A DNA stretch of 64,000 bases. Origin: an uncultured Pseudohongiella sp. (lineage in GTDB: Bacteria; Pseudomonadota; Gammaproteobacteria; Pseudomonadales; Pseudohongiellaceae). The DNA lies in NCBI GenBank assembly GCA_964622925.1, contig CAZUSL010000181.1:785-64784 (forward strand), in the 5' to 3' direction. Positions 4,782 through 30,842 of the stretch are shown here, one piece after another. Below the pieces are notes generated by a model. The model saw nothing but the letters and a program-made list of their open reading frames with translations, was not told the DNA's origin and searched no databases. Made by a program: the position numbers and the translations under genes. Positions within the stretch are counted from its first letter, which is position 1. Each line of letters begins with the position of its first letter.

Positions 4782-4782
4782 A

Positions 4783-7859: not shown

Positions 7860-7863
7860 AAAA

Positions 7864-7896: not shown

Positions 7897-7927
7897 GCGG
7901 TATTCGAAAAAATCCGTCACAAGAATG

Positions 7928-7956
7928 TTGACAACCCTTTCCATGTAGCATATAAG
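7928..7956 (+). promoter_or_regulatory. Sigma70-type promoter upstream of the TonB-dependent receptor gene
   Basis: TTGACA (7928-7933), a 17-nt spacer, then TATAAG (7951-7956), inside an AT-rich intergenic stretch. Confidence 0.6.
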
Positions 7957-7961
7957 ACGTT

Positions 7962-7977
7962 ATGACAACGTTATCAT
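7962..7977 (+). promoter_or_regulatory. LacI-family-type palindromic operator candidate
   Basis: ATGACAACGTTATCAT differs from its reverse complement at one symmetric position pair. It has a central CG and a TGnnAACGTTnnCA layout, and sits 5 nt downstream of the -10 box. Confidence 0.5.
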
Positions 7978-8065
7978 TTTTCTCGCCAATGCGGTGAGAT
8001 GAGGAAAATCACTACCCGCGCCTCGTCGTCAGGCTGAGCCCGGGAAGGTGGAGGAGAGAATCAAG

Positions 8066-11023: not shown

Positions 11024-11042
11024 GTGCTGATTGCGCACCAGG

Positions 11043-11072
11043 AAAGGCTGCCCTCCGGGGCAGCCTTTTTTG
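11043..11072 (+). terminator. Rho-independent terminator after the TBDR gene
   Basis: AAAGGCTGCCC, loop TCCG, GGGCAGCCTTT: a perfect 11-bp stem followed by a T-run. Confidence 0.8.
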
Positions 11073-11106
11073 TATCATCGGTCCCCCAGGCAGGATTGGT
11101 GGTGTG

Positions 11107-12666: not shown

Positions 12667-12672
12667 ACAACC

Positions 12673-13434: not shown

Positions 13435-14434
13435 GCCGGCGCCCGTCGAATGCCTCGATTGCGCCGGCGGCGCGATTCCGCGGCAGGTGTTCTCTTCGAC
13501 CGAACCGGTATTGCTCAAGGGACTCGTGAGCGGCTGGCCCGCGGTCGCAGGGTGCGGCGGATCGATTCCCGACGCCGCTCGCTATCTCTCTCAGTTCTGG
13601 CGCGAAGAGCCGGTCACGGTATACGCGGGAGATTCCTCGATAGACGGCAGATTTTTCTACAACGAGGATTTCACCGGATTCAACTTCGTCGCCGGCAAGG
13701 CCAGCCTGCCGCAGGTCTTCGCCAAGCTCGCCGAACCCGACCGCGAAGAGCGCCTGTCGACGCTGTATATCGGCTCGACTCCCATCGACAAGTGGATGCC
13801 CGGTTTTCGGGCGCAGAACGATGTGCAATTGCCTACCGAGGACGCGCTGGCGAGTTTCTGGCTCGGCAACCGGACCCGGGTGTCGGCGCATTACGATTTT
13901 CCCGACAACGTCGCCTGCGTGGTGGCCGGCGAGCGTCGCTTCACGCTGTTCCCGCCGGAGCAGATCGGCAATCTGTATGTCGGCCCCATCGACAAGACGC
14001 CTTCGGGCCAGGCGATCAGCCTGGTCGACGTAAAAAATCCCGATCTGGAGCGTTTCCCGAAATTCGCCGAGGCTCTCAAGCACGCGCGGACCGCCTTGCT
14101 CGAGCCGGGCGATGCGATCTTCATCCCGAGCATGTGGTGGCATCACGTCGAGTCGCGGGAAGAATTCAACATGCTGATCAACTATTGGTGGTGCAATTCG
14201 CCGGGTTTCATGGGTTCGCCCACCAATGCGCTGATGCACGCGATCCTCGCCTTGCGCGACCTGCCGCCGCGCCAGCGCGAACTCTGGCAGGGAGTATTCA
14301 ATCATTACGTCTTCGACGCCGACGAGTCGGTGTACGAGCACATTCCGGAGCCGGGCAGGGGCTGCCTGGCGCCGCTCGACGAAACCAGGGCCAGGCAATT
14401 GCACGCCGATCTGCTCAACCGGCTCAATCGTTAG
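13427..14434 (+). CDS. Cupin-like (JmjC/cupin_8) domain protein
   Basis: ATG 13427 overlaps the SapC stop by 8 nt (alternative GTG 13391). The segments SAHYDFPDNVACVVAGERRFTLFPP and GDAIFIPSMWWHHVES indicate a cupin/JmjC-like fold. Confidence 0.8.
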   Translation: MSEPAPVECLDCAGGAIPRQVFSSTEPVLLKGLVSGWPAVAGCGGSIPDAARYLSQFWREEPVTVYAGDSSIDGRFFYNEDFTGFNFVAGKASLPQVFAKLAEPDREERLSTLYIGSTPIDKWMPGFRAQNDVQLPTEDALASFWLGNRTRVSAHYDFPDNVACVVAGERRFTLFPPEQIGNLYVGPIDKTPSGQAISLVDVKNPDLERFPKFAEALKHARTALLEPGDAIFIPSMWWHHVESREEFNMLINYWWCNSPGFMGSPTNALMHAILALRDLPPRQRELWQGVFNHYVFDADESVYEHIPEPGRGCLAPLDETRARQLHADLLNRLNR

Positions 14435-14474
14435 GGGATATTCAAGAACGCCGCCGTTCCCGGAGAGAACATCC

Positions 14475-15965
14475 ATGCAAAATCGCAAGATTCACAAGAT
14501 CGTCATCGCCGGCGGCGGCACCGCGGGCTGGATGGCCGCCGCGGCCCTGTCGCGGCTGCTCGGCAAGACCCTGAGCATCACCCTGGTGGAATCCGAAGAG
14601 ATCGGCACGGTCGGCGTCGGCGAAGCGACCATCCCTACCCTGATCACCTATCACGATCTGATCAAGGTCAAGGAGCAGGATTTTCTCAAGGCGACCCAGG
14701 GCACCTTCAAGCTCGGCATCAAGTTCGAAAGCTGGCGCGACGTAAACGAGGACTACATCCATTCCTTCGGCTGGACCGGCAAGGACAGTTGGGCGGCTGG
14801 ATTCCAGCATTTCTGGCTCAAGGGCCTGAAGATGGGCATCGCCCGCGAGTTCGGCGAATATTGCAACGAATGGGCCGCCGCGGTGCGGAACAAGTTCGCG
14901 GTGATGCCGAGCCTGGGCCTGAACTACGCCTATCACATAGACGCTTCGCTCTATGCGAAATTCCTGCGCGGCATCGCCGAGGAACACGGCGCGGTGCGGC
15001 AGGAAGGCAAGATCGAATTCGTCGAGCAGGATCCGGACAGCGGATATATCACCGCGATCCGCCTGCAATCGGGGCAGGTCATCGAAGGCGATCTGTTCAT
15101 CGATTGCACGGGTTTTCGCGGCTTGCTGATCGAGCAGACGCTCAACGCCGGCTACAACGACTGGAAGCACTGGCTGCCCTGCGACAGCGCCGTCGCCTTG
15201 CAGACCGAATCGGTCGAAGAGCCGATCCCCTACACGCGCTCGATCGCCCGCGAAGCCGGCTGGCAATGGCGCATTCCCTTGCAGCATCGCGTCGGCAACG
15301 GCGTGGTCTTCAGCAGCCGGCACTGGAGCCCCGACGAGGCGATCGGAAAGTTGCTCGAAAACGTCGAAGGCAAGGTGCTTACCGAACCGCGCGTGATCCG
15401 TTTCAATGCCGGCCAGCGGCGCAGGCACTGGTACAAGAACTGCGTCGCCATGGGCCTGTCGTCGGGCTTCATCGAGCCCCTGGAGTCGACTAGCATCCAC
15501 CTGATCCAGCGCTCGATCATCCGCCTGATGCAGATGTTCCCTTACGACGGCATCCGAGAGCCGGACGTCGAGGAATTCAACAACCAGATGAAGTTCGAGA
15601 TCGACAACGTGCGCGATTTCATCATCCTGCATTACCACGCCACCAATCGCACCGACACCCGCTTCTGGCGTCAGTGCCGCAACATGGACATCCCCGATTC
15701 GCTGAAACATCGCATCGAGTTGTTCAAGCAGGCGGGGCGCGTGTTCAAGATACCGACCGAACTGTTCGGCGAGAATTCATGGATCCAGGTAATGCTGGGC
15801 CAGGGACTGCTGCCGGAGCAATATCACCCGATCGTCAACATGATGAGCGAGGAGGAACTGGACCGATTCCTGACCTCGATCCACGGCTCGGTCGAGAAAC
15901 TGGTCGGCCAGCTTCCCTCGCATCAGCAATTCATCGACCACTATTGCAAGGCGCAACCCGTCTGA
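14475..15965 (+). CDS. Tryptophan-halogenase-family flavoprotein (paralogue 2)
   Basis: IVIAGGGTAGWMAA, GYAYHIDA-like and FIEPLESTS segments. It is collinear with 11107..12666. Confidence 0.85.
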   Translation: MQNRKIHKIVIAGGGTAGWMAAAALSRLLGKTLSITLVESEEIGTVGVGEATIPTLITYHDLIKVKEQDFLKATQGTFKLGIKFESWRDVNEDYIHSFGWTGKDSWAAGFQHFWLKGLKMGIAREFGEYCNEWAAAVRNKFAVMPSLGLNYAYHIDASLYAKFLRGIAEEHGAVRQEGKIEFVEQDPDSGYITAIRLQSGQVIEGDLFIDCTGFRGLLIEQTLNAGYNDWKHWLPCDSAVALQTESVEEPIPYTRSIAREAGWQWRIPLQHRVGNGVVFSSRHWSPDEAIGKLLENVEGKVLTEPRVIRFNAGQRRRHWYKNCVAMGLSSGFIEPLESTSIHLIQRSIIRLMQMFPYDGIREPDVEEFNNQMKFEIDNVRDFIILHYHATNRTDTRFWRQCRNMDIPDSLKHRIELFKQAGRVFKIPTELFGENSWIQVMLGQGLLPEQYHPIVNMMSEEELDRFLTSIHGSVEKLVGQLPSHQQFIDHYCKAQPV

Positions 15966-15981
15966 ATCTCGATCTGACTGC

Positions 15982-16797
15982 TCAAGTGGCAGGCAGCACC
16001 GGTGTCAGCATCGCCCGCCAGTCAGGCGCCAGGTCAGCCACTGCGATGAAATGGGGATTGCGCAAATCCTCTCCCTTGTTGTAGCGCAGCGGCCGGAAAC
16101 CGGTATCGAAGATTTCGCCGCCAGCGGCCGCGAGTACTGCATGGGCCGCGGCGGTGTCCCATTCGAATGTCGGCGCCAAGCGGGGATAGATGTCGGCCTT
16201 GCCTTCGGCGAGCAGGCAGATCTTCAGCGAACTGCCCATGTTGACCATCTCCACGGCGCCATACTCGGCTTCGAGCCGCCGCAGCACACGCTTCACATGC
16301 CGATCAAGATGGCTGCGGCTCGCCACCATTTTCAGCGGAGCATGATCGGATTTCGCCCCGGCGCTTATCGGGACCGGCTCGCTACCGGTATCCTGCCGAA
16401 AAGCGCCATGCCCGATTGCGCCCATATAGCTCACTCCACTGACCGGCACATGCACCACGCCAAGCTCGGCGATGCCATCGCCGACCAGCGCGATATTGAC
16501 CGTGAATTCGCCGTTACGCTTGACGAACTCCCGCGTACCGTCAAGCGGGTCCACGAGCCAATAGCGTTGCCATTGCCGCCGGGTCTCGTAAGTCGGCTGC
16601 GCCGATTCCTCAGAAAGGACCGGCAGCCGCGGTTCGAGTTCGGCCAGGCCGGCTTCGATGATCGCGTTCGCCCGCCGGTCCGCTTCGGTCAGCGGCGAAT
16701 CGTCGTCCTTGTATTGCACGGCAAGGCCGTCGGCGCTGTTATACACTTCCATGATCACCGCACCGGCTCGCCGCGCGATTGCTTCGATTTCCAACAT
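15982..16797 (-). CDS. cysQ: 3'(2'),5'-bisphosphate nucleotidase
   Basis: WLVDPLDGTREFVKRNGEFTVNIALV is the inositol-monophosphatase/CysQ motif. The start is chosen at MLEIEAIARRAGAVIMEVY, which parallels the E. coli CysQ N-terminus as I remember it. The ORF track extends to 16902. Confidence 0.85.
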   Translation of the reverse strand: MLEIEAIARRAGAVIMEVYNSADGLAVQYKDDDSPLTEADRRANAIIEAGLAELEPRLPVLSEESAQPTYETRRQWQRYWLVDPLDGTREFVKRNGEFTVNIALVGDGIAELGVVHVPVSGVSYMGAIGHGAFRQDTGSEPVPISAGAKSDHAPLKMVASRSHLDRHVKRVLRRLEAEYGAVEMVNMGSSLKICLLAEGKADIYPRLAPTFEWDTAAAHAVLAAAGGEIFDTGFRPLRYNKGEDLRNPHFIAVADLAPDWRAMLTPVLPAT

Positions 16798-17906: not shown

Positions 17907-18029
17907 AAATATCCCTTCAATTTCCGGAAACGTTTCGCCCGTGTTTTGAAGAGTGCGTGATTCAAAGACACGCATTGACCGGTTACACTCTTTCGGCATA
18001 GATTGACCAGCCTGTTTGGCCTGCCAATC

Positions 18030-18674
18030 ATGATGAGCAGCACCTCGTACTACAACCAGAACCGGGACGCGCTGTTCGAGCAGTATCACGCCTACGACCC
18101 GGAGGTGGTTCATCGCGCCTGGGCGCCGGAGCATCTCAAGGGGCGAAAGCCCGGATTCGCTTGCGACATCGGTGCGGGCACCGGCCGGGACGCCAACTGG
18201 CTCGCCGAACAGGGATGGGAAGTGCTAGCGGTCGAGCCGAGCGACTTGCGCGAACCGGGAGAGGGAAAGTCCAATCCGCGCGTAACCTGGCTCGACGACA
18301 CGCTGCCGGACCTCCGGAAACTGCGCGCCCTGGGCCGGCGATTCGACCTGATCCTGCTGCGCTCGGTCTGGATGCATGTTCCCAGGTCCAGTCAGGAACG
18401 GGCTTTCCGCATCCTCACCGAACTGCTGAATCCCTCAGGCCTGCTCGTAATCAGCTTGCGGCACGGCAGCGACGAGGAGGAAAATCAGGCGCGCGGTTTC
18501 CACTCTGTCAGCGCCGATGATTTGATCCGCTACGCCAGGGACTGCGCCATCAGTCTGCGAGGCCAATACGAACATCCCGACCGGTCGCGGGACCATGTCC
18601 ATTGGGAGTGGCTGGTTTTCGAGATGCCATCCAAACCAAACTTACTTGTTGAAGCATTAGCATTGGCTTGCTAG
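18030..18674 (+). CDS. Class I SAM-dependent methyltransferase
   Basis: ATG 18030 (TTG 18003 is possible). CDIGAGTGRDANWLAEQGWEVLAVEPS is SAM-binding motif I. The last ~15 codons run into AT-rich DNA. Confidence 0.7.
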   Translation: MMSSTSYYNQNRDALFEQYHAYDPEVVHRAWAPEHLKGRKPGFACDIGAGTGRDANWLAEQGWEVLAVEPSDLREPGEGKSNPRVTWLDDTLPDLRKLRALGRRFDLILLRSVWMHVPRSSQERAFRILTELLNPSGLLVISLRHGSDEEENQARGFHSVSADDLIRYARDCAISLRGQYEHPDRSRDHVHWEWLVFEMPSKPNLLVEALALAC

Positions 18675-18863
18675 ATTCTAGTTCCCCACGGAACATATGA
18701 GATGCTGAAGGATATGGTATCAACAGGCAGTCGGAAATTTTTGCAGAAAATTGAGCATTGTCTAGAATCTTGACTACTGTATATAGGCAACTTGGTGTGC
18801 TGGGCACAATAAGCGGATGGCTCTCAACGGATGAGCGATTAAAATTTCTATTTTTTCGGATAT

Positions 18864-19328
18864 TTGATAGTGAAGTACGGCTGGCAATTTGACTTGAGTG
18901 ATTGGCAGAAAATCCCGGATGATCTCCGGGACAGCGCCGCTTGGGTGGGAGTAGACTATACGCTCATTGAATCGGGTCGAGTACCGGAACATCCAGGAGT
19001 ATATCTGTTTTGCGCCCGACCGGTTGGAGTTAAAGAGATTTCTAACTCAGATGCGAAATTGTTTGGGAAGTTGCTAACTCCAATTTATGTTGGCCAGACG
19101 ACGAATCTACGCAAGCGCTTTCGACAGCATTGCCGAAATCCGTCGATTAGGTTGCGAGCAGCGAGTGACTGTTATCGACATTTCTTAAGATTCTGGTTCC
19201 TAAAGAGAAGTGCTCAAAGCATTCTGGAGGAAGAGGCGGCTTTAATCCAATGTTTTGGGCCAACTGCAAACGAGAGATATGGCGTTATCAGGGCGAAAAT
19301 AGACTCGCCAACCCGGATTGGGCTTTAA
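18864..19328 (+). CDS. GIY-YIG-like nuclease-domain protein (154 aa)
   Basis: PGVYLF ... IYVGQTTNLRKRFRQH ... EEEAALIQCFGPTANERYG gives GIY/YIG-like elements plus the conserved Arg and Glu/Asn positions. The spacer between GVY and YVG is unusually long. Start is TTG 18864 or GTG 18870. Confidence 0.55.
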   Translation: MIVKYGWQFDLSDWQKIPDDLRDSAAWVGVDYTLIESGRVPEHPGVYLFCARPVGVKEISNSDAKLFGKLLTPIYVGQTTNLRKRFRQHCRNPSIRLRAASDCYRHFLRFWFLKRSAQSILEEEAALIQCFGPTANERYGVIRAKIDSPTRIGL

Positions 19329-19358
19329 CTGTAAATTTTTCAATTATAGGAGTTATCG

Positions 19359-20741
19359 ATGAACATTTATCCGGCTATGCGAGCGGGCATGGGAACATGG
19401 GAATACTATATCGTGAAGATGCGTATGGAAGACTTGGTTAAGGAAGTTGAGTTCGCTCATGAAATTCACGACAACAAGACCCTAGATGAGGCAATACAGC
19501 GAGGCCTTAATCAAGGAAGAGTGAAGCAGGAGATCGTGAGGTATCTTGCTTTTTCTGAAGATCGATTTTTTAATTCCATTGTGGTTGCTGCACTTGGGGG
19601 CAATCCAAGATTTAGTCCGGTTTCGATTGATGAAGATCCTCAATTCAACCTTATTGGCAGAGATGAATTTAATGACACATTCGGAGTTCTTAGCTTCGAT
19701 GGGAAGCAACACTACTATGCCTTAGACGGCCAACATAGGCTTATGTCAATTAAGACGCTATTGGAGCAGAAAGAGAAAGATGTTCCAAATTTGCCCGATG
19801 GATTTCAAGACGAAGAAATTTCAGTAATAATGCTTGTAAAACAAAATAAAGATGAAAATTTTATGAGAAGTTATAGGAGAATTTTCTCAAACCTAAACCG
19901 GTATGCGAAACCAACTGATGCCGATACTAACATAATCATGGATGAAGATGATCCGTTCGCAATTCTAACTCGAAGACTACTGACGGATCATGAATTCTTC
20001 TGGTGGGGCGGAAAGGCGACTGATTCACCCAAAGTGAAGACGCAAGGGAAAAATTTGAAATCTGGAGAACCATACTTTACCTCATTACAAACCCTTTACA
20101 GTATGAATAAGACTTTGCTTAAGTCTCCAGCAAGAGAAAAGGAACTTTACGGATCAAAAGATTTTCAGAGATTCAGGTCGGGTGAAGATGTCCTAGACGA
20201 ATTATATGAGGAGTTGGCAATATATTGGGATTCATTGATTGAAGCGCTACCTGTACTAAGGTCTGATGCTACAAGAATGAGAACCCATTCGATTGCAGAT
20301 CAAGACCAAGCACATGAAGAAGGAAAGGAGCCACTAACAGATCACTTGCTGTTTTGGCCAATCGGACAGGACATATTAGCCAAAATGGCAAGGTTGTTGC
20401 TTAACCGTCGTTTACCAGATCCCGACAACCCCAGCAAAGAGGAGGCAACCGCCTGTCTAGAGGTTTTAAACACCGTCAATTTGGAATTGCACTCCCCGCC
20501 GTGGCGCAATGTACTGCTGGTACCTGACCCTGTTAAAGATGGTACATGGCGAATGCGTAGTGAAGAGCGAAAACAAGCTGTAGAAGTGAGCGAACGGATT
20601 CTAAGGATGATGACAGGCATTGATGATCTGGGTAAGGAGGAAAGCCTAGAGCTAAAGACAGAATGGCATGCTCTGCTGTGGCCTAGGCCCGAGAAACGTG
20701 AAGTAGATGAATGGTGGGATACTATCTGCGCTCGTAAATGA
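19359..20741 (+). CDS. DGQHR-domain protein (DndB-like; SspF-like?)
   Basis: RBS TAGGAG lies 6 nt before ATG 19359. It has an exact DGQHR motif in HYYALDGQHRLMSIKTLL and an N-terminus (RAGMGTWEYYIVKM..FNSIVVAALGG) like the DndB/DGQHR family. Confidence 0.85.
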   Translation: MNIYPAMRAGMGTWEYYIVKMRMEDLVKEVEFAHEIHDNKTLDEAIQRGLNQGRVKQEIVRYLAFSEDRFFNSIVVAALGGNPRFSPVSIDEDPQFNLIGRDEFNDTFGVLSFDGKQHYYALDGQHRLMSIKTLLEQKEKDVPNLPDGFQDEEISVIMLVKQNKDENFMRSYRRIFSNLNRYAKPTDADTNIIMDEDDPFAILTRRLLTDHEFFWWGGKATDSPKVKTQGKNLKSGEPYFTSLQTLYSMNKTLLKSPAREKELYGSKDFQRFRSGEDVLDELYEELAIYWDSLIEALPVLRSDATRMRTHSIADQDQAHEEGKEPLTDHLLFWPIGQDILAKMARLLLNRRLPDPDNPSKEEATACLEVLNTVNLELHSPPWRNVLLVPDPVKDGTWRMRSEERKQAVEVSERILRMMTGIDDLGKEESLELKTEWHALLWPRPEKREVDEWWDTICARK

Positions 20742-20750
20742 TAGTTGCCC

Positions 20751-21575
20751 CTATTGCTGCTGGCTGAATTTTCTATACAGCACTTTACAAGGGCTGCGAC
20801 GATCCTTTGCGAACGAGATGGCGTCCGGATGGAGGATTCTCAAATGATTAATTTGCTTTAAGCCGATATCTAAAAGTATCGAAATTCCGTCTAATGTTTT
20901 CTTATCTGGTTCATACTGATACAGAACTGGAATTGGAAGGCTCGCCAAATTTTTGGAGTAACCAACTTCCCACGGATAGTTCGCATCTGATCCACTTTCA
21001 TCATAGTTGGTTGAGAGTTTAAACAGCGCGCGGCGTAGACAAGTAATTTTTGGAGATCTCCAACTGCGGAGTCGGACCTCAATGCCCAGAGATATCCAAG
21101 GCAACCAACTTCTCCAATCATCTACAGGCAAACCATTGAACTTTCTGATCTCTGAATCTATCGATTGAATAAAGTTGTGCCGCAATTTTCCATTTGTATG
21201 GAAACAATCATCAGAAATTATCCAAGCCAACTTATCCGACGACGGTCTTCCCGTTGCTGTTAAGTTTTGACCTAGCAATTGAAATGTATCATATGCATCA
21301 CTAACTGCAAATTTCTGCCTTTTTGTTAACTTTAGGTCGCAACCAATTCCATCTTCTCTTTCGAAATTTAGCTCATCTAGAAGTTGTGAAATTGTATAGT
21401 CTTTAGGCAATCCCATTAGAATACTACGTAGTTTCGGAGCAATATTTAGCCCGCACAAGGAGGAGCAATGAAGAGATTCGTCAGCCAATTTCTGATAATT
21501 TTCGACATTAAACAACTTTCGAACCATTGAATTAGTCCTTCTTGATAGAATGTTGGGAATATCCAAAATTGACAT
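20751..21575 (-). CDS. Hypothetical protein, 274 aa, no recognisable domain (SspG-like position)
   Basis: A long ORF in AT-rich DNA, where spurious ORFs are rare. It lies 39 nt downstream of the SNF2 gene on the same strand. I could recognise no motif. Confidence 0.6.
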   Translation of the reverse strand: MSILDIPNILSRRTNSMVRKLFNVENYQKLADESLHCSSLCGLNIAPKLRSILMGLPKDYTISQLLDELNFEREDGIGCDLKLTKRQKFAVSDAYDTFQLLGQNLTATGRPSSDKLAWIISDDCFHTNGKLRHNFIQSIDSEIRKFNGLPVDDWRSWLPWISLGIEVRLRSWRSPKITCLRRALFKLSTNYDESGSDANYPWEVGYSKNLASLPIPVLYQYEPDKKTLDGISILLDIGLKQINHLRILHPDAISFAKDRRSPCKVLYRKFSQQQ

Positions 21576-21614
21576 GTCTACATCGCCTTAGTCACAGAAT
21601 TAGGAAATGGAGTT

Positions 21615-23258
21615 TTACAGAACATCGTTGAATTCTTTTGGCGTTAATTCTCTATCGTCTTGCGAATCAGTGCTAAGCTTTGAAATTATGCTGGAAAACA
21701 GCTCAAATTTGGAATTGAGAATCTCTTCGAGTCTTGATTCGACTGTGTTGATAGTCCTTAACTTGTATACATTGACATCCTTCTTTTGGCCGATTCGATA
21801 TACTCTATCTCTAGCTTGACTGTTTATGGCCGGATTCCACCACTCATTCAGGAATATCACATGATTAGCGGAAGTTAGTGTTACTCCTTCAGCCATCGCG
21901 CGTGTTGTACAAAGAAGTATGGAAGGTTGTGCACACACTTGAAATTTGCTAATTATCTCAATTCTGTCACTGGCTGATGATGATCCAGTCAGGATGGCCA
22001 GATAACTATTGCTCCTGAACTCCTTCTCCAGCCTTGCATTTAGTTCCGCAAGGGGGCGTACAAGATAGGAAAAGATTACAACTTTTTCATCTAACTGTTG
22101 AATTGCTTTCACCAATTCGATGGCGCGATCAATTTTGGAACTGCGACCGGTTTTTGGATCGAAGTCACAGATTTCCCGCAATTGTCCAAAAATCTTAATC
22201 CAATTGGCGAGTCTAGAAGTATTGCTTCGTTTGACTATTTCATTATAGGCATCTCGCTGTTCACTGATTAGCGGTATGTGCTCGATTTTCTCAAATATAT
22301 TCGGAAGTTCATTGGATATAACCTTTTTGTTTCGCCGAAGAATGTACTTTGACGCTAGAGTTCGCAATGAAGCAGATCCAAGTTTTCCATCGCTTATTGC
22401 GACTCTTTTTCGATCAATTAGATGTAGTATGGAAGCAAGTTCAATGGGCCTGTTTTCTAATGGTGTGCCTGAAAGTCCCCATGTAATATTGGGAAATATG
22501 TCGTAAACGGATTTATAAGAATTAGATTTGTAATTCTTGAGTTTGTGTATTTCATCTAATATGACAAGATCAAATGTGCCAGATTTAGGTCTGCTGAATC
22601 TTACAGTCTCGTAGTTTGTAATGGCAACGTGACATTGATCGCCTATGGTAGTCCAAAGATTCTCAGATACGGTGGCAAAGACGGAAACTATACATAGATG
22701 AGGCGCCCACAATTTGAGTTCTGCTTCCCATACCCCTATAAGTGATTTTGGGCAAATAACCAACGCACTTCTGATTTTTCTATCTCGTAGTTGATGATCA
22801 AGGGCAGCGATTGCTTGAAGAGTCTTGCCCAGGCCCATATCGTCAGCCAAAATTCCAGATTCGCGGCCCTTTAGCCAAGTCATTCCAGCTTCTTGGTGTT
22901 CCTTGAACGGATAGCTTGGAAGAAATCGAAGTAAGCGAAATCGCCAAATCTCTCCTATATTAAAGAAAGCTGTGTCTCGGTTGGCCTTGTTAATTCTTAT
23001 AGCCTGAGGGTCGGCTTGTGGAATCAGTATATTCTTCGACTTGGCTGAAGAAGATATTCTTCCTAGTTCAGTACGCGTAGAATACAACTCTTCCTTTAGT
23101 AAGTATAGTTCTTTGGAGTTAAGGTAAAAAAATTCATCAGAGAAAAGCGCATCATCAATTTCTGGGAATTGCTTAATTTCTGGATACAATCCAATTTCGA
23201 GACCTATAGAGCTGCGCTTAATCTCGCAAATACTGGAATTATGTCGATCTACACTCAT
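21615..23258 (-). CDS. SNF2-family helicase, short form (547 aa; SspH-like?)
   Basis: ILADDMGLGKTLQAIA (motif I), DLVILDEIHKLKN (motif II), LSGTPLENRPIELASIL (motif III), and the C-terminal helicase segment LTSANHVIFLNEWWNPAINSQARDRVYRIGQKKDVNVY. Confidence 0.9.
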   Translation of the reverse strand: MSVDRHNSSICEIKRSSIGLEIGLYPEIKQFPEIDDALFSDEFFYLNSKELYLLKEELYSTRTELGRISSSAKSKNILIPQADPQAIRINKANRDTAFFNIGEIWRFRLLRFLPSYPFKEHQEAGMTWLKGRESGILADDMGLGKTLQAIAALDHQLRDRKIRSALVICPKSLIGVWEAELKLWAPHLCIVSVFATVSENLWTTIGDQCHVAITNYETVRFSRPKSGTFDLVILDEIHKLKNYKSNSYKSVYDIFPNITWGLSGTPLENRPIELASILHLIDRKRVAISDGKLGSASLRTLASKYILRRNKKVISNELPNIFEKIEHIPLISEQRDAYNEIVKRSNTSRLANWIKIFGQLREICDFDPKTGRSSKIDRAIELVKAIQQLDEKVVIFSYLVRPLAELNARLEKEFRSNSYLAILTGSSSASDRIEIISKFQVCAQPSILLCTTRAMAEGVTLTSANHVIFLNEWWNPAINSQARDRVYRIGQKKDVNVYKLRTINTVESRLEEILNSKFELFSSIISKLSTDSQDDRELTPKEFNDVL

Positions 23259-23576
23259 TCAATCAGTTCCTGGATTTTTGATTACTAGCAAGAAAAGTCC
23301 GCTGTATATCTAGAAACGGATTTCTGATATCGAAATTTTGGAAAATTGTGTAATGATTGACGTATTTTTTCATCTAATTGGGCTAAATTGTCAGTTTAGA
23401 GATTTCAACGCATACATTCGCTAATCGTAGTGTGAAAGATGTCTTGTACCTAAAAGCAGTCGGAGATTCAACAAAAATTAAGCAAAACAGGTATACATGC
23501 CGAGTATAGTGTAAGATGGTGCTCGCGGAAGGGATGGCGAGCGAAGTTTTGTATTCGCGTAAACTGCTGATATTTA

Positions 23577-24503
23577 ATGAAATTTAGTACCTCACAAGTC
23601 GCATTCGGACGCCACGAGAGCTTCCATCTGCGATTCTGTTGGCTTTCCAAGGGATTTACAGAACTGCAACGCGACCCGACACTTGTCTCCGATGTGGATC
23701 AAGCTACGCTTGCCCTAGGTGTTGGCAAGAACATGGTGGTGTCTATCCGATATTGGTTGCGGGCGGCTCGGATGATAGGAGAATCGGACAGCAGCTCCAC
23801 TGAACTGGGCGGCTTCCTGCTTCATCCGAGCCACGGGAAAGATCCGTTCCTTGAGGACGAGGGAACATTGTGGCTACTCCACTGGCTCATCGCTTCCAAT
23901 ACGGAGACCGCAACTACCATTGCCTGGTTTTTTAGTAAATTCCACAAACCCCGCTTTAGTCAACAAGAGTTGCGTGCCGCCCTAGGGGCCTATCTGCAAA
24001 GCTCTGTCGAGTCTTACAGAAGACCGGCAGCAAGTACGCTGCGGACCGACGTGTCAGTCCTCGCGAGAACCTATGCAAGACACCAGGGCGCAAGCTTAGT
24101 CGAAGAGCTGATGGATTCGCCGCTGGCCGAGCTTGGACTGATTACGGAAACCAGGAAAAGCAGCTACCAATCATTATTCGGTGAGCGCCCGAGCTTGCCT
24201 TGCGAAATACTCGGATTCGCATTGCTGCAACTGTTGCAACGCCGGGACGTTCAGGTCTTGCCTCTTGAAGATGTACTCCAGTCCACGGACGGGTACGTAT
24301 CCCCAGGTACGATTTTTCGCCTGACCGAAGCAGGTTTGATGAGCAAACTTGAAGAACTTGAAAAAGCCTACCCGCACATTTTCGATCTACGCGAGACTGC
24401 AGGCTTACGGCAACTTTTCTTGCGACAGGAATTACCTGCCATTGAGCTACTAGAGTCCTACTACCAGCAGGGGTCCAGAGTGGCACCGGAGGTCGCGGCA
24501 TGA
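23577..24503 (+). CDS. sspB: DUF4007-like protein (SspB-like)
   Basis: The N-terminus FGRHESFHLRFCWLSKGF matches my memory of the DUF4007 family hallmark. Its stop overlaps the next ATG (ATGA 24500-24503). Confidence 0.65.
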   Translation: MKFSTSQVAFGRHESFHLRFCWLSKGFTELQRDPTLVSDVDQATLALGVGKNMVVSIRYWLRAARMIGESDSSSTELGGFLLHPSHGKDPFLEDEGTLWLLHWLIASNTETATTIAWFFSKFHKPRFSQQELRAALGAYLQSSVESYRRPAASTLRTDVSVLARTYARHQGASLVEELMDSPLAELGLITETRKSSYQSLFGERPSLPCEILGFALLQLLQRRDVQVLPLEDVLQSTDGYVSPGTIFRLTEAGLMSKLEELEKAYPHIFDLRETAGLRQLFLRQELPAIELLESYYQQGSRVAPEVAA

Positions 24504-27500
24504 GCTTGGCTGATTACGTTCAAGTAAGAACGGCCTATACGCGGTCAATCAACCTGGAACGAGACTCAAAGTCGAAAGGAGTCGAATGCACCTATATCCC
24601 GACCACTCGCGCACTGCGCACTCTCGCAACGATTACAGAACGCTTTAGCAACGAGGACCAGCCACGTTCCTGGTCCTTGGTCGGGCCCTATGGATCGGGT
24701 AAGTCCTCATTTGCACTGTTTTTGTCCGAACTCCTAGGCAGTCAGAAGTTGCCCCATACGAAAACTGCATTGACTCAGCTTGGAAGGAACGACAGTCTTT
24801 TGCACTCCCGATTTCTGGAGGAGACAAAGGCCTCCGATGGGTATGTATCCGTACTTGTCTCCGGCACCCCTGAGCGGCTGTCTTTGAGGTACTTGAATGC
24901 CTTGATGACTGCCGTTGGCGAGTATTGGATCGGTAGGCGGGGTAAGAAGCCGCGCATTTTCGACAAGATGCGAGGATTCAGGGAAGCAGGACAGGTCTCT
25001 ATTTCGGAACTACTGGAACTTACTCAGGAATGCCAGCAGGTACTTTCCAAAGTTGGATGTCCGGGGATACTCGTAGTTTTCGATGAGTTCGGCAAATTCC
25101 TCGAGTACGAATCACACACACCCGATGCCAATGACGTCTTCCTGTTGCAGGCCTTGGCCGAACATGCCTACACGGCCAGCGAAACGAAGCTGCTTGTAAT
25201 TGCGCTGCTTCATCAGTCGATCGAGCAATACGCGCTCGGAGTTGGCGAAACCCTCAAAAACGAATGGGCAAAGATTCAGGGCCGATTCGAAGAAGTCCCT
25301 TTTATCGAAACTGCCGAGCAAACTCTGCGCGTTGTCCGGGCGGCATTGGCACATCGAGAGTTCGACTCCGAATCCCGTGGTCAAATCGAAGCTGATGTCC
25401 TCAAAGCCGTGGAAATTTTACAGGGCGAAGGCGTATTAACCGATTTTCAGGACGTAGCCGAGACCGCCAAGCTATTCGCCGGTCTGTATCCCCTTCATCC
25501 CATCAGCGCCATTATTCTTCCCTACCTCTGCCAGTTGATTTCTCAGAACGAGCGTAGCCTTTTCGGTTATCTGGGAAGCAGGGAGCGAGATGGATTTCAG
25601 GACATGCTTGAGCGAATTGGCTCGCTAGGTGAGTTCATCAGGCCCGACCATCTTTTCGACTATTTCCTGGCCAACCAGCAGTCCATCTATGGAGACTACC
25701 TGACTCAACGTCGCTGGGCTGAGTCGGTATCCGCGGTCGAACGAGTCGCCGATGCCACCAAACAGCAGATGGCGATTCTAAAGGCGGTAGCTCTGGTCAA
25801 TCTACTAGGAAACCGGGGTCGAGTCAGGGCTTCTGAAGCACTGATCCGTTCAGTATATGGGCCTTCCGCTTCGAAGGACCTTAAAGCACTGCAAGAGGCT
25901 TCGGTCCTCATTCATCGTAAGTTCAATAACGAATTCCGTGTTTGGCAGGGGAGTGATTTTGATCTTGAGTCTCGATTGAGGGAGCAGGCTAACCAACTCG
26001 GCCCATTTTCATTGGCGGAAGAATTGACGAGATATAAGGCGGTCGCCCCAATCGTGGCTCGCAAATACAGTATCGAGAAAGGAACGCTGCGCTACTTCGA
26101 CGTTGAGTTTGTGGACGCCTTGACTTGGGAAAAAACAGAAAAAAAGGGAAATCCACAAATCTTCTTGTTTCTGAGTGCGGGCAGAGACGACACACATATA
26201 TACGAGCAGAAAGCCAGAGGCCACCTTGCCAGACACGGTTTGGTTGCACTTTCCCATGCCGGTCAATCTTTGAAGTCTTTGGTCTCCGAGCGCCTGGCGT
26301 TGGAGGAAATAGAAAGAACCGCGAAAGAACTTGCCGAAGATCCCGTTGCGCGCAAGGAACTTAAAGCACGGCTTGAGGTCGTGAAACACTTTGAGGCAAC
26401 CCACATCTCGCACTTGCTCGACAATCCTCAGCAGCTTGACTGGCGTTTCGGCGCCTGCGAACTTCCGGTTGCCTCGCGTCGGCAGTTCCAGTCACAACTG
26501 TCTTCCGTGCTTGAGGAGATATATCCCAACTCTCCCGAAATCCACAACGAACTGATCAATCGAGATCGGCTTTCCTCGCAGGCGGCCGCTGCCCGAAACA
26601 AACTGCTTTCCTTGCTGCTGACGGACACGGACAAGGAAGACTTGGGAATTGATCCGAAGAAGTTCCCTCCAGAAAAAGCGATTTATAGAGCCACGCTGAA
26701 AGAGACCAAGATTCACAAAGAGACATCGAAAGGTTGGGCGCTTCATGCGCCCCCTAAAAACAGCTCGCTGTTCGATGCCTGGAACCGAGTCGAGAAATTT
26801 CTGGCCTCCACTGAAGACGAGGCTCGCCCGTTCACCGCCATAAACGCTGAGTTGATGAATCGGCCTTATGGAGTGAAAGCGGGCATCCTGCCTATTCTGT
26901 GGATTTGCGTTTACCTTGTTTACGAGTACGAGATCGCCTTGTACGAGAACGGCCGTTATATCCCTGGATTCACCGCGGAGGCCTTGGAGCGGTTCGTAAA
27001 GCGTCCAGATTTGTTTCAGGTACAAAGGTTTCGCATTCAGGGATTACGCAAATCCATTTTTGAGCAATACCGCAAAGTCATAAGCGGTGGGGCGCAACCT
27101 AAAACAATCCTGCATGTCGCCAAACCATTAGCAGCGTTTATGCATGAACTTCCAGAGTACACATTGAAGACAAGAGTGGGTCTATCCCACCAAGCAATAG
27201 CGGTTCGGGAGGCCTTTCAACTAGCGAAGACTCCCAAGAATCTCCTGTTCGAGAGATTGCCAATGGCGCTTGATTATCGAGGCAGGGGCAGCGACCCCGA
27301 CGAGCGCATTGATAGTTTCGCAGAACAGCTAAAAGAGGTGCTGCGGGAGTTCAAGAACGCCCATGCAAGGATGAAGGATGCGTTACGGGAGAGATTGGCG
27401 GAGACGGTTGGTCTCAATCCTAAACTGCCACTTGCAGACTTGAGAGCGCAAAGCTTGGGGCGCTGCCATGGTCTTGAGAACCAGACTGTAGACGTTCATG

Positions 27501-27991
27501 GGCTGCGCGGCTTGCTTCTCAGAATCAATCGCGAAGAAGGCTCCGACGAGCAGTGGTTAGAGAACATCCTGATGTTTCTTGCCGCGAAGCCAAGCACGAA
27601 GTGGACCGATACGGACAGGAACGAAGCCGAATACAAACTTGCCGAGTTCGCACGTAGACTAGCAGACCTCTACCGGCTCGCAGCCGAAGAGCGGCGCATC
27701 CAGCTCAGCGGCAACCAGGATTTCGACGTGTACTTGCTTAAGTCATTGAAATCTGGCGGACAATTTCTTGATGAGATCATCACCATCGACCGCGAAAAGC
27801 AAGAGCACACCAGGAATATCAAGCAAGAAATCGAGGCCGCATTGCAGAAATCGGGCAATCGCGACTTGCAACTCGCGGCCCTCGCACAAGTTGTCGACGA
27901 ATTCTTGAAATCCTCGGACCAGCCGTCAAAATTAACAGGGGCTGACGAAGAGACGCCCGCCATAAACTTTGTCCGAGATCGCAAGTCGTAA
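24500..27991 (+). CDS. sspC: Large P-loop ATPase, 1163 aa (SspC-like)
   Basis: Walker A LVGPYGSGKSSFALFL and Walker B ILVVFDEFGKFLEY. It is translationally coupled on both sides. Confidence 0.75.
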   Translation: MSLADYVQVRTAYTRSINLERDSKSKGVECTYIPTTRALRTLATITERFSNEDQPRSWSLVGPYGSGKSSFALFLSELLGSQKLPHTKTALTQLGRNDSLLHSRFLEETKASDGYVSVLVSGTPERLSLRYLNALMTAVGEYWIGRRGKKPRIFDKMRGFREAGQVSISELLELTQECQQVLSKVGCPGILVVFDEFGKFLEYESHTPDANDVFLLQALAEHAYTASETKLLVIALLHQSIEQYALGVGETLKNEWAKIQGRFEEVPFIETAEQTLRVVRAALAHREFDSESRGQIEADVLKAVEILQGEGVLTDFQDVAETAKLFAGLYPLHPISAIILPYLCQLISQNERSLFGYLGSRERDGFQDMLERIGSLGEFIRPDHLFDYFLANQQSIYGDYLTQRRWAESVSAVERVADATKQQMAILKAVALVNLLGNRGRVRASEALIRSVYGPSASKDLKALQEASVLIHRKFNNEFRVWQGSDFDLESRLREQANQLGPFSLAEELTRYKAVAPIVARKYSIEKGTLRYFDVEFVDALTWEKTEKKGNPQIFLFLSAGRDDTHIYEQKARGHLARHGLVALSHAGQSLKSLVSERLALEEIERTAKELAEDPVARKELKARLEVVKHFEATHISHLLDNPQQLDWRFGACELPVASRRQFQSQLSSVLEEIYPNSPEIHNELINRDRLSSQAAAARNKLLSLLLTDTDKEDLGIDPKKFPPEKAIYRATLKETKIHKETSKGWALHAPPKNSSLFDAWNRVEKFLASTEDEARPFTAINAELMNRPYGVKAGILPILWICVYLVYEYEIALYENGRYIPGFTAEALERFVKRPDLFQVQRFRIQGLRKSIFEQYRKVISGGAQPKTILHVAKPLAAFMHELPEYTLKTRVGLSHQAIAVREAFQLAKTPKNLLFERLPMALDYRGRGSDPDERIDSFAEQLKEVLREFKNAHARMKDALRERLAETVGLNPKLPLADLRAQSLGRCHGLENQTVDVHGLRGLLLRINREEGSDEQWLENILMFLAAKPSTKWTDTDRNEAEYKLAEFARRLADLYRLAAEERRIQLSGNQDFDVYLLKSLKSGGQFLDEIITIDREKQEHTRNIKQEIEAALQKSGNRDLQLAALAQVVDEFLKSSDQPSKLTGADEETPAINFVRDRKS

Positions 27992-28854
27992 TGCACTTTT
28001 CAGAGCTACCGCAACAGGGAGACAACGAAACCCGGCACGTCCTCGGGCTGTCCGGGGGCAAGGACAGTGCCGCCTTGGCCATCTACCTGAAAGACCACTA
28101 CCCGGCCATCAGTGAGCGGGTAGAGTACTTTTTCTCCGATACCGGCGCCGAACTGAAAGAGGCTTACGAGTTTCTTGATCGGCTGGAAACCTGGCTCGGC
28201 AAGGAGATCGTCCGCCTCAGCACCGGCCGCGAATTCGATCATTGGCTCAAGGTCCACAACGGCATGCTCCCTTCGGCGCGGCAGCGCTGGTGCACCCGGA
28301 CCATGAAGATTCAACCTTTTGAAAGATTTGTAGGGGATGACCCGGTCATAACCTATGTCGGCATAAGGGCGGATGAGCAACGGGAGGGCTATATCAGCAC
28401 CAAGCCAAGCATCAAGGCCGTATTCCCATTCATCGAGGACGGCATCGCCAAGGCGGACGTGTTCCGGTTCCTCGAAGAAACTGTCGGCGTGCCCGAATAC
28501 TACAAATGGCGCTCGCGGTCTGGCTGCTACTTCTGCTTCTTCCAGCGCCAGGACGAGTGGCTGGGATTGAAAGAGAACCACCCCGAACTCTTCGAACGGG
28601 CAAAGCGCTATGAAATGCGCAAGCGGGAGCGCTACGACCTCGATGTCGCTGGCACCAGCCTCGTCGGTAGCGGCAACTACACGTGGAGCAGCGAAGGAAC
28701 TCTCGACGAGCTCGTAACGAAAGCCGAAAAGCGCCGCAAGGAATTGGGCGTCATCGCCAGCACCGCGGACAAGAACAAACGCTGGCAAGACCTCCTCCTC
28801 GAACAAGACGAAGACGACCCCGAAGACCAGGCCTGCCTAATTTGCTCGCTCTGA
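27991..28854 (+). CDS. sspD: PAPS-reductase-family PP-loop ATP pyrophosphatase (SspD-like)
   Basis: PP-loop LGLSGGKDSAALAIYL. Two CxxC pairs are present (CYFC, CLIC). ATG 27991 overlaps the upstream TAA (TAATG). Confidence 0.8.
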   Translation: MHFSELPQQGDNETRHVLGLSGGKDSAALAIYLKDHYPAISERVEYFFSDTGAELKEAYEFLDRLETWLGKEIVRLSTGREFDHWLKVHNGMLPSARQRWCTRTMKIQPFERFVGDDPVITYVGIRADEQREGYISTKPSIKAVFPFIEDGIAKADVFRFLEETVGVPEYYKWRSRSGCYFCFFQRQDEWLGLKENHPELFERAKRYEMRKRERYDLDVAGTSLVGSGNYTWSSEGTLDELVTKAEKRRKELGVIASTADKNKRWQDLLLEQDEDDPEDQACLICSL

Positions 28855-29091
28855 GGCTGCCTCCATTTCATCGATCGACTTTGCTTCGCCTTTGTAGGCG
28901 AGACACCCAAATACTTGCTCTGGATGGGTTTCAGGGAAATGCGGGTAAGCCTTCAACAGGACGCCATCAGGTCTATCCTCCACAAGTAGGCGAGTGCCAG
29001 CTTTCCAGTGGCGCGCCTTACGGATGGACTTGGGCAGGACAATCTGCCCCTTGGCGGAGACAGTTGTCGTAATCCGACTATCCTCAGGCAT
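28837..29091 (-). CDS. AbrB/MazE/SpoVT-family antitoxin-like DNA-binding protein (orphan)
   Basis: TTTVSAKGQIVLPKSIRKARHWKAGTRLLVED is a swapped-hairpin AbrB motif. The C-terminal FGCLAYKGEAKSIDEMEAA is typical of VapB-type antitoxins. No toxin ORF lies downstream. Confidence 0.8.
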   Translation of the reverse strand: MPEDSRITTTVSAKGQIVLPKSIRKARHWKAGTRLLVEDRPDGVLLKAYPHFPETHPEQVFGCLAYKGEAKSIDEMEAASERAN

Positions 29092-29240
29092 AGCAAATTC
29101 TCGTAAAAGACTGACGAACCACTAGTGTAAGCCAAGTCGACAGCATTGAGGCGTTCGCGCCATGTCGCGCCACCCCCCGATTTTTGCCATAATGCCGCGA
29201 CTTTCGCGTTACACCGTTGTTTCCCCTTTCCGGAGTCGTT

Positions 29241-30842
29241 GTGGCCGACCGTTTCGACGCTGCCCTGAAGCGCTACGGGCTACCCCTTTTTCAACCTGAA
29301 TGGACCGCGATCTGCCGCGGGATCGAGAAGGAATGCCTGCGCGTGACGCCCGAAGGCCGTATTTCCCGGCGGCCGCATCCGCCCGGGCTCGGCTCTGCGC
29401 TGAAGAATCCGTATATCACCACCGATTTCTCCGAAGCCCTGCTCGAATTCATCACGCCCAAGGATCAGAGCATCGAAGGCTGCCTGGGGATGCTGGAAGA
29501 CATCCATCGATTCACGCTGGCGAACATGGAAGAGGGCGAGATTCTCTGGGCTTCGAGCATGCCCTGTCCGGCGGGCCTGGAAGGCGAAGTGCCGATCGCG
29601 AGTTACGGCAGTTCCAACATCGGCCGCCTCAAGCGCCTGTATCGCACCGGACTTTCGTATCGCTACGACAGTCTCATGCAGGCCATTGCCGGGTTGCACT
29701 ACAACTTTTCCATGCCGGAGGAGTTCTGGCAGCCGTACCAGCGCATTGTCGGTTTCAACGGTTCCCTGCGGGACTTTCGCACCGAGAGTTATCTGCATCT
29801 GATCCGTAATTTCCATCGCCATTCCTGGCTGTTGCTCTACCTGTTCGGCGCTTCGCCCGCAGCGGCGAGCAGTTTCGTTGAAGGCCGCGAACATCACTTG
29901 CAGCGCATGGAAACGGGGACCATGTATCTGCCGAACGCCACCTGTCTGCGCATGGGCCGGCTCGGCTATCAAAGCGATGCGCAGAAATCCCTGTTCGTCT
30001 GTTACAACGATCTGCCGCTCTATGTCGAATGCCTGCAAGGCGCCATGAAAACGCCTTATCCGCCTTACGAGGAAATCGGACACAAGGTCGATGGCGAGTA
30101 TCGACAAATCAATGTCAATCTGCTGCAACTGGAGAACGAGTTCTACAGTACGATCCGCCCCAAGCGGATTGCGCGCGGCGGCGAACGGCCCCTTGATGCG
30201 CTCGTGCTTCATGGCATCGAGTATGTCGAGTTGCGCGCATTCGATCTCAATCCCTTTCTGCCGCTTGGCATCGATGCCGAGCAGGTGCGTTTCATCGATA
30301 CTTTCCTGCTGCATTGCCTGCTCGGCGAGAGCCCGCAATGCAATCGAGCGGAATTCTTCGAAGTGGCGGACAATGTTCTTCGCGTGGTGGAAGAGGGTCG
30401 CGATATGTCGATCGAACTCAATCGCGGCGGCAAGCCCGTCGCCCTGGCGGATTGGGCCGAAGGATTCCTCGCCGACATGAAGCACGCGGCGGCCCTGATG
30501 GATCATTTCCATGGCGGCGGCTACCTGGAAAGCGTCGAGCGGCAGGAAGAGAAACTCCGTAATCCGGCGCTTACGCCTTCCGCCATGATGCTGGAAGAGA
30601 TGGAACGCGGCGGACTGAGCTTCTGCGAGTTCTCGATGGCGGTTTCAAAGCGGCATGCGCAGACCCTGCTGGCGGAACCACTGGACGAGAACGTGCGCGA
30701 GTTGATGGAGCGCACCGCCGCGGAATCGCTTGAGCGGCAGCGCGAGGCCGAAGCCGCGGACAAGATCAGTTTCGATGAGTTTCTGCGGGAGTGGAACGCC
30801 TGGCAGCCGCTTGGTCACGCTATCCAGGAAAGCGAGGCATAA
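29241..30842 (+). CDS. gshA: Glutamate-cysteine ligase
   Basis: RGIEKECLRV..., DFSEALLEFITP and GIEYVELRAFDLNPF are GshA hallmarks. GTG 29241 is preceded by GGAG (the ORF-track start is TTG 29217). Confidence 0.9.
   Translation: MADRFDAALKRYGLPLFQPEWTAICRGIEKECLRVTPEGRISRRPHPPGLGSALKNPYITTDFSEALLEFITPKDQSIEGCLGMLEDIHRFTLANMEEGEILWASSMPCPAGLEGEVPIASYGSSNIGRLKRLYRTGLSYRYDSLMQAIAGLHYNFSMPEEFWQPYQRIVGFNGSLRDFRTESYLHLIRNFHRHSWLLLYLFGASPAAASSFVEGREHHLQRMETGTMYLPNATCLRMGRLGYQSDAQKSLFVCYNDLPLYVECLQGAMKTPYPPYEEIGHKVDGEYRQINVNLLQLENEFYSTIRPKRIARGGERPLDALVLHGIEYVELRAFDLNPFLPLGIDAEQVRFIDTFLLHCLLGESPQCNRAEFFEVADNVLRVVEEGRDMSIELNRGGKPVALADWAEGFLADMKHAAALMDHFHGGGYLESVERQEEKLRNPALTPSAMMLEEMERGGLSFCEFSMAVSKRHAQTLLAEPLDENVRELMERTAAESLERQREAEAADKISFDEFLREWNAWQPLGHAIQESEA

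Follow-up and report, generated by a model that had tools for sequence, protein, structure and literature searches.

A conserved gene set beside an SspBCD phosphorothioation locus of Pseudohongiella as a candidate Ssp-coupled effector module

DNA phosphorothioation of the Ssp type has a minimal writer that is now defined as sspBCD, given cases that depend on IscS (PMC12914056). The effectors described for it are SspE, a phosphorothioate-sensing ParB-like nucleoside triphosphatase (NTPase) fused to an HNH nuclease (PMC10952713, PMC13251355), and SspFGH, and a paper published in May 2026 by the group behind the description of Ssp names no others. Most writers stand apart from both: among 2,678 sspBCD modules, sspE was found nearby in 7.4% and sspFGH in 7.3%, which leaves ~85% without either (PMC8092258). 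The present analysis concerns an sspBCD triad and the genes next to it in a stretch of 64,000 nucleotides (hereafter the window) from an uncultured Pseudohongiella sp. (assembly GCA_964622925.1, contig CAZUSL010000181.1, positions 785 to 64,784).

Rather than standing alone as a three-gene unit, the triad belongs to a seven-gene island, and the interest of the locus lies in the adjacent companion module, the triad alone being routine. The companion genes upstream of sspB are probably an undescribed anti-phage restriction partner, and the evidence leans towards regarding them as a candidate for a third type of effector module coupled to Ssp. A preliminary description of the triad had proposed that restriction comes from a different partner than SspE; a candidate for this partner is very probably present within the window, immediately upstream (18864-23258), in genes which that description did not mention. 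The features of the island are as follows.

18675-29216: low-GC (guanine plus cytosine) chromosomal island of ~10.5 kb, recognised by its GC content and by the site it shares with a relative
18864-19328, + strand: small GIY-YIG-like nuclease, 154 amino acids, candidate DNA-cutting subunit (PF01541)
19359-20741, + strand: DGQHR-domain DndB-family (ParB-like) protein, 460 amino acids (PF14072, TIGR03187)
20751-21575, - strand: helical protein of 274 amino acids without a family match, lineage-restricted accessory gene
21615-23258, - strand: SNF2-family helicase/translocase, 547 amino acids, without a nuclease domain (SNF2-rel_dom, Helicase_C)
23259-23576: AT-rich divergent intergenic region of 318 bp between the SNF2 gene and sspB (GC 36.8%)
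23577-24503, + strand: sspB, DUF4007 protein of 308 amino acids (DUF4007 and PADLOC SspB matches)
24500-27991, + strand: sspC, P-loop ATPase of 1163 amino acids, related to BrxC (PADLOC SspC match, Walker A, VVFDEF)
27991-28854, + strand: sspD, PAPS-reductase-type PP-loop enzyme of 287 amino acids (PADLOC SspD and PAPS_reduct matches, SGGKDS)

The main evidence for a link between the two halves of the island is their persistent neighbourhood in other genomes. One genome per GTDB species was scanned, seeded solely on the DGQHR protein, a family of 1,361 clusters at 90% identity (232 at 50% identity with E <= 1e-30). The initial DGQHR contexts inspected all had sspBCD alongside, in differing arrangements, and the scan yielded 80 loci in bacteria of at least 11 phyla: Pseudomonadota, Acidobacteriota, Chloroflexota, Poribacteria, Gemmatimonadota, Latescibacterota, Binatota, Actinomycetota, Verrucomicrobiota, Spirochaetota, and Myxococcota. 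Up to a distance of 10 kb from the DGQHR gene, sspD was present in 71/80 loci, sspC in 69/80, sspB in 63/80, and an SNF2 gene in 55/80, while the GIY-YIG-like small open reading frame (ORF), detected with a hidden Markov model (HMM), was present in 63/80. Restricting the count to loci flanked by 9 kb or more in both directions placed sspD in 71 of 74 (96%). Since sspBCD is present in just ~3% of genomes (PMC12914056), this co-occurrence argues for functional linkage and not for the crowding of defence islands.

The linkage is also close. The small ORF ended no more than 200 nt before the start of the DGQHR gene in 48/80 loci, the SNF2 gene lay immediately downstream of it on the same strand in 43/80, and sspD was found directly upstream of the DGQHR gene in 25 loci, with space just for the small ORF in between. 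The commonest layout was a tight co-linear sspB-sspC-sspD-GIY-YIG-DGQHR-SNF2 array, with gaps between genes of ~10-50 bp in loci L036, L041, and L059. Co-linear, convergent, and divergent layouts were all found; the linkage outlasts rearrangement. A subgroup without the GIY-YIG-like ORF (L053, L055, L058, L061, L063, L065-L071, L075, L078, and L081, at about 6000-9950) has one or two extra divergent DGQHR-motif proteins between sspD or sspA and the gene of the 460-residue type, for example in L065 (8129-9955, 608 amino acids) and L055 (6567-8045 and 7997-9952).

This conserved neighbourhood bears directly on the simplest account of the locus, in which SspBCD is a solitary writer with an epigenetic or redox role, or with an unlinked partner, and the genes upstream are irrelevant to it. 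Published sspBCD modules are indeed mostly 'solitary', with roles outside defence put forward for them (PMC8092258), but the upstream genes have kept their linkage to sspBCD, and I regard a solitary writer without an effector in the window as very improbable.

The carriers are nearly all metagenome-assembled genomes and include at least 15 Candidatus Poribacteria. Many of their bin names (SB0675, COS, APA, CAR, RHO, PCPOR) are ones that I take to come from marine-sponge microbiome studies. Phosphorothioation genes are reported to be enriched in sponge metagenomes (PMC5099237), and the module may be a trait that organisms of one habitat share through horizontal transfer.

As to the triad itself, comparison with family profiles makes it, as far as sequence can tell, an ordinary new member of the known SspBCD family of DNA-phosphorothioation writers. 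The first ORF matched PF13182/DUF4007 over profile positions 1-288 of 288 (6e-75) and the PADLOC SspB model at 4.9e-81. The second matched PADLOC SspC with E = 0 and 1223.7 bits over profile positions 1-1062 of 1064, and BrxC-PglY at 7e-140, while a Pfam profile search of this ORF gave zero matches. The third matched PADLOC SspD (1.3e-101) and PF01507/PAPS_reduct (2.7e-9), and only marginally the DndC equivalog TIGR03183, with 19 bits against a cut-off of 290. With full-length matches to the Ssp profiles, the triad is thus SspBCD and not DndC/DndD; a Dnd identity was rejected on the DndC score, and no dndCDE genes were found in the window. By homology, SspB is the DUF4007 DNA-binding and nicking subunit, SspC the large ATPase, and SspD the PP-loop enzyme that inserts sulfur.

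The details given in the preliminary description were borne out. The motifs it listed, FGRHESFHLRFCW, GPYGSGKSS, VVFDEF, SGGKDS, and two CxxC pairs, all occur in the translations, the pairs in SspD being CYFC and CLIC. The ORFs overlap as it stated, by ATGA at 24500-24503 (sspB/sspC) and TAATG at 27989-27993 (sspC/sspD), which places the three genes in B-C-D order in one operon.

Its statement that the module lacks sspA and sspE holds for the window, but this is no peculiarity, as it is the usual state of sspBCD modules. A tblastn search of the 64-kb window with E. coli IscS, a query identical to PDB 1p3w that also detects SspA (6m4j, 1.5e-73) and DndA (3vax, 9e-92), gave a best E of 3.4, and the PLP (pyridoxal phosphate)-lysine and cysteine-loop patterns of desulfurases were found in none of the six frames of the window. 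Searching with three true SspE proteins from related loci gave a best tblastn E of 1.2 in the window, and the PADLOC SspE models, which recognised control proteins from L026 and L017 at E ~0, matched none of the island proteins. A six-frame scan of the window for DGQ[QH]R found no DGQQR and a single motif at 19725-19739, which sits in the DndB-family protein 2.8 kb upstream of sspB and not in a DUF262/DUF1524 protein.

An IscS/SspA-like gene adjoins sspBCD in 42/80 of the related loci, and because about half of them have one, the absence of sspA here is lineage-specific. Precedents for a writer of this kind have been demonstrated: the Vibrio anguillarum FF-93 system runs with iscS (PMC8092258), and E. 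coli 3234/A has sspBCDE without sspA and uses the IscS of the host (PMC13251355). By analogy, the earlier suggestion that sulfur comes from a housekeeping IscS-type enzyme fits well.

Turning to the companion proteins, the small GIY-YIG-like protein scored 25.6 bits against PF01541 (cut-off 22.6). Residues G45, Y47, Y75, G77, R85, H89, E124, and N136 are conserved at 98-100% in 51 orthologues, and Y75, R85, and H89 are spaced by 10 and 4 residues, as in the catalytic core of I-TevI. Ahead of this nuclease core, the N-terminus (18864-18950) has G6, W7, W14, and W27 invariant or nearly so in the same number of orthologues; speculatively, this conserved aromatic element could form a hydrophobic surface for sulfur recognition or for partner binding.

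The DGQHR protein, a candidate NTPase and phosphorothioate sensor or regulator, matched PF14072 (3.5e-33, 115.5 bits, cut-off 29.1) and TIGR03187 (118.9 bits, cut-off 58.85) but fell below the DndB equivalog TIGR03233 (62.6 against a cut-off of 328). Across 25 relatives its DGQHR motif (D123-R127) varies little or not at all, and the same is true of an acidic motif, IIMDEDD. Compared with DndB it has an extra conserved C-terminal half, for which a Pfam search with E as high as 10 gave nothing. Among PDB sequences, a profile search returned nothing relevant. The AlphaFold model had a pLDDT (predicted local distance difference test) of 78, and a Foldseek search of the PDB gave no match below E = 0.3 and only weak ParB-N matches at E 0.6-3.

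The SNF2 protein matched PF00176/SNF2-rel_dom (8.6e-40) and PF00271/Helicase_C (4.6e-16), with Walker A (D139-T146), DExH (D235, E236, H238), and motif VI conserved in 55 orthologues; its nearest PADLOC models are ZorD (1.6e-71) and DpdE (4.7e-52). The 274-residue protein has no match in Pfam, NCBIfam, or PADLOC, just 5 homologues among 5.8 billion proteins, and an unusable AlphaFold model (pLDDT 54), and it occurs in 9/80 loci, all near the window's lineage.

Domain identities and linkage are thus direct observations, from which a mechanism can be sketched by analogy. Following precedent, SspBCD would mark host DNA with phosphorothioate on a single strand and at specific sequences, with sulfur supplied by IscS or another desulfurase whose gene lies elsewhere in the genome. 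The upstream genes would, judging by gene linkage and domain content, be the cognate effector half, in which the DGQHR ParB-like protein may act as a nucleotide-dependent sensor or switch, like the ParB-like N-terminal domain of SspE, and the small GIY-YIG protein may cleave DNA in trans, taking the part that the fused HNH domain has in SspE. The SNF2 ATPase would translocate on DNA, with the result that unmarked invading DNA is located and cleaved and the marked DNA of the host stays intact, and the 274-residue protein would be a lineage-specific accessory. The rationale for such a split effector is that SspE couples an NTPase to a nuclease, and that DGQHR and DUF262 share a superfamily: DGQHR, DUF262, and COG1479 have been placed in one ParB-like superfamily, and SspE has been called the DndB equivalent (PMC3632139, PMC10853773).

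Several points weigh against this proposal. The likeness to SspE is confined to the motif level, as hhalign aligned just the DGQ[HQ]R region, with a probability of 3.8%, and the DGQHR protein is without a PDB sequence match or a significant fold match. The GIY-YIG call in Pfam is borderline, with several orthologues below the cut-off. The SNF2 gene is absent from about a third of the loci and the small ORF from 17/80, and in three full-flank loci the DGQHR protein occurs but sspBCD does not. In the window, the companions are not co-transcribed with sspBCD, and their distinct composition and divergence history would equally fit an autonomous neighbouring system. Modification and defence alike are predicted here from the genes. 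Finally, true SspE (PADLOC E ~0) directly follows sspD in L017 (4790-7126), L026 (7641-9926), and L030 (7591-9888), where it coexists with the DGQHR protein on one writer; the DGQHR protein is therefore not simply a substitute for SspE. SspE is likewise compatible with SspFGH on one writer (PMC8092258), which these loci echo.

The characterised relative DndB is a non-essential negative regulator of modification and not an effector (PMC4507180, PMC12914056), and the main rival to the proposal follows from this: the DGQHR protein could be a DndB-like regulator that tunes sspBCD transcription or modification frequency and stands outside the effector, with GIY-YIG and SNF2 forming the whole effector or serving some other use. 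The protein does belong to the Pfam DndB family, with a weak match to the DndB equivalog, the true SspE of some loci could supply restriction, and in the window the DGQHR gene and sspBCD diverge from a shared AT-rich region that would be open to a regulator. Its score lies far below the equivalog cut-off, though, it has the extra conserved C-terminal half, and a simple transcription factor would not need the tight coupling to the small ORF and to SNF2 in 48 and 43 loci, respectively. A Rhizobium dnd cluster, described below, moreover has its own dndB beside the DGQHR protein. A role purely in regulation hence appears unlikely.

Two plasmid-borne relatives were informative about which parts of the companion set belong together. 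In the cultured Roseobacter litoralis B14, plasmid pROLI83 (L087, NZ_CP143425.1) carries at 2135-14650 sspA-sspB-sspC-sspD and then a small GIY-YIG-like ORF with a DGQHR gene; SNF2 is absent there, and after the DGQHR gene come a divergent PLD-family nuclease, a GHKL (HATPase_c_3) ATPase, and a superfamily 2 (SF2) helicase, a trio that looks like an alternative motor and nuclease set. In Rhizobium sp. NXC14, plasmid pRspNXC14a (L086, NZ_CP021031.1) carries at 7412-16705 a small ORF and a DGQHR protein beside dndBCDE and a desulfurase; this dnd cluster is complete, its dndB being additional to the DGQHR protein, which shares 29% identity with the window's protein along its whole length. An HMM built from 54 small-ORF sequences (the window's own and 53 orthologues) recognised the small proteins of both plasmids, at 6e-17 and 2e-13. 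Because the pair of small protein and DGQHR protein flanks ssp and dnd clusters alike, it is tied to phosphorothioation as such, and the conserved core is the small nuclease-like protein together with the DGQHR protein. Between this pair and the dnd genes, NXC14 has a methyltransferase that is 36% identical to the one flanking the window's island (18003-18674), and L001/L002 and L005 likewise have homologues of the latter close to the island.

A broader reading, which I hold tentatively and with rather less assurance than the effector assignment, is that the GIY-YIG-like and DGQHR pair is a portable 'phosphorothioate reader plus nuclease' cassette that docks onto Ssp or Dnd writers and constitutes a third class after SspE and SspFGH. 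Its motors would be interchangeable, SNF2 in the window and the PLD nuclease, GHKL ATPase, and SF2 helicase in Roseobacter, and it would have spread horizontally through at least 11 phyla, with many of the carriers apparently sponge symbionts.

The setting of the island is chromosomal. It lies between an S-adenosylmethionine (SAM) methyltransferase gene (18003-18674) and gshA (29217-30842), and a close relative (L005, VYCF01000045.1) has the same island between the same flanking genes. GC content is 37-48% over 18675-23576, 52-58% over sspBCD, and 61% elsewhere in the window. No tRNA, Rfam match, or flanking direct repeats were found in the island, and no integrase among its genes. The 318-bp intergenic region, the presumed site of promoters, showed neither a consensus sigma-70 site nor significant repeats, its DNA is not conserved with L005, and promoter and terminator scans gave fewer sites than in shuffled sequence. 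Non-synonymous (dN) and synonymous (dS) divergence between the window and L005 was uneven along the island:

Flanking methyltransferase and gshA: dS 0.34-0.42, third-position GC host-like
sspD: dS 0.33, third-position GC 0.75 (host-like)
sspB and sspC: dS ~0.9-1.0, third-position GC ~0.57
Companion genes: dS 1.4 to saturated, third-position GC 0.37-0.48

Saturation of dS was reached for the DGQHR and 274-residue genes. For genes with an estimable dS, dN/dS was 0.02-0.16, which indicates purifying selection, with sspD at 99% amino-acid identity and a dN/dS of 0.02. Positive selection as the source of the uneven divergence was rejected, and allele exchange explains it better, because dN/dS is low while dS is high or saturated. 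The mosaic suggests repeated replacement of alleles or modules at a fixed chromosomal site with sspD retained; the effector half turns over fastest, and the sspB and sspC alleles are swapped to a lesser extent.

Such independent exchange is what would be expected if the companions were an autonomous helicase-plus-nuclease defence of the ZorD/DrmD kind, merely clustered with sspBCD and making no use of the phosphorothioate mark. The companion genes differ from sspBCD in GC (40-48% vs 52-58%) and have diverged more deeply from L005 than sspD, the best matches of the SNF2 protein are ZorD, DpdE, and DrmD, and the three full-flank loci without sspBCD point the same way. Co-occurrence within 10 kb at 96%, kept gene order, and operon-like spacing over at least 11 phyla nevertheless exceed what island clustering would give, the sole other context found was dnd, which is also phosphorothioation, and the island has no other component of Zorya, DISARM, or Dpd. 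Autonomy of the companions is therefore an improbable explanation, and a phosphorothioation-coupled effector is the reading retained here.

Beyond the island, the remainder of the window consists of housekeeping genes. Two tryptophan-halogenase-family genes (10876-12666 and 14475-15965; 2e-117 and 5e-189), unrelated to the island, adjoin a TonB-dependent receptor gene (8048-11023). Just upstream of the flanking methyltransferase, L005 has ~1.3 kb extra (L005 94-1412 vs window 17931-18032). The Pseudohongiella relatives L001/L002 have, upstream of the module (2669-9103), dense toxin-antitoxin pairs (PhdYeFM/PIN, BrnT/BrnA, and HigB-like/HTH (helix-turn-helix)) along with duplicated methyltransferase genes, a typical defence or addiction island context that is missing from the window.

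A full-text literature search, with subscription journals mostly outside its scope, found no link of a DGQHR protein, GIY-YIG, or SNF2 to sspBCD, and the companion module, which is conserved, is apparently undescribed. The large share of known sspBCD modules without a recognised restriction partner has led to suggestions of 'solitary' epigenetic roles, and an overlooked partner would fill part of this gap. If the proposal is true, it would add a new effector architecture, consisting of a split ParB-like switch, a GIY-YIG nuclease acting in trans, and an SNF2 motor, and the cassette beside dnd could show one reader recognising backbone sulfur from two unrelated machineries. Roseobacter litoralis B14 with pROLI83 is a cultured and genetically approachable carrier, which makes the idea directly testable.

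Comparison with described systems sets the island apart from each of them in a different way. The Dpd 7-deazaguanine system also combines a ParB-like ATPase (DpdB) and an SNF2 helicase (DpdE) with a DNA-modification module, but the island has no DpdA/TGT (tRNA-guanine transglycosylase) or other dpd genes, and its DGQHR protein matches just DndB models in PADLOC. Membership in Zorya, DISARM, or Dpd was rejected, as no island protein matched ZorABC, DrmA, DrmB, DrmC, DpdA, or DpdC. BREX (bacteriophage exclusion) type 4 (BrxP, BrxC, BrxZ, BrxL) is related through its writer-like parts, SspC being homologous to BrxC, and SspB and SspD each matching part of the BrxP fusion (PMC12839542); the island, in contrast, has no PglZ or BrxL, and its SspB and SspD are separate proteins with far better matches to Ssp models.

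DndB and Haft's 'DNA phosphorothioation-associated DGQHR protein' (TIGR04172) share with the window's protein the DGQHR domain and the association with phosphorothioation genes, and a further, dnd-associated DGQHR protein had already been pointed out in 2011 (PMC3226654). Against TIGR04172, the window's protein scored 32.8 bits, below the equivalog cut-off of 450, and unlike these proteins it is ~100 amino acids longer, ssp- and not dnd-associated, and coupled to nuclease and helicase genes.

The IscS-SspBCD-SspFGH system of V. anguillarum FF-93 likewise joins a writer without sspA to a multi-gene effector with an ATPase/translocase (PMC8092258). SspF has a Walker A motif and SspH an FtsK/SpoIIIE-like C-terminus, SspFGH being otherwise without annotated homology (PMC8092258). 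The island, with its GIY-YIG, DndB-family, and SNF2 proteins and no FtsK-like domain, was rejected as an SspFGH system, from which it is set apart by the published description alone.

The closest parallel is with SspABCD-SspE, as found in Vibrio cyclitrophicus FF75, E. coli 3234/A, and Streptomyces, which has the same sspB-sspC-sspD order with overlapping frames. An SspE in disguise was rejected, given the low hhalign probability and the SspE models that matched controls but nothing in the island. In that system the sensor is a ParB-like NTPase with DGQQR; the linked ParB-like protein of the island has DGQHR instead. SspE itself is a protein of ~770-820 amino acids in which an N-terminal DUF262 (DGQQR) NTPase is fused to a C-terminal DUF1524/HNH domain; the island, without such a protein, has a DndB-family ParB-like protein that lacks the fused HNH/DUF1524 part, together with a separate GIY-YIG-like protein and an SNF2 translocase.

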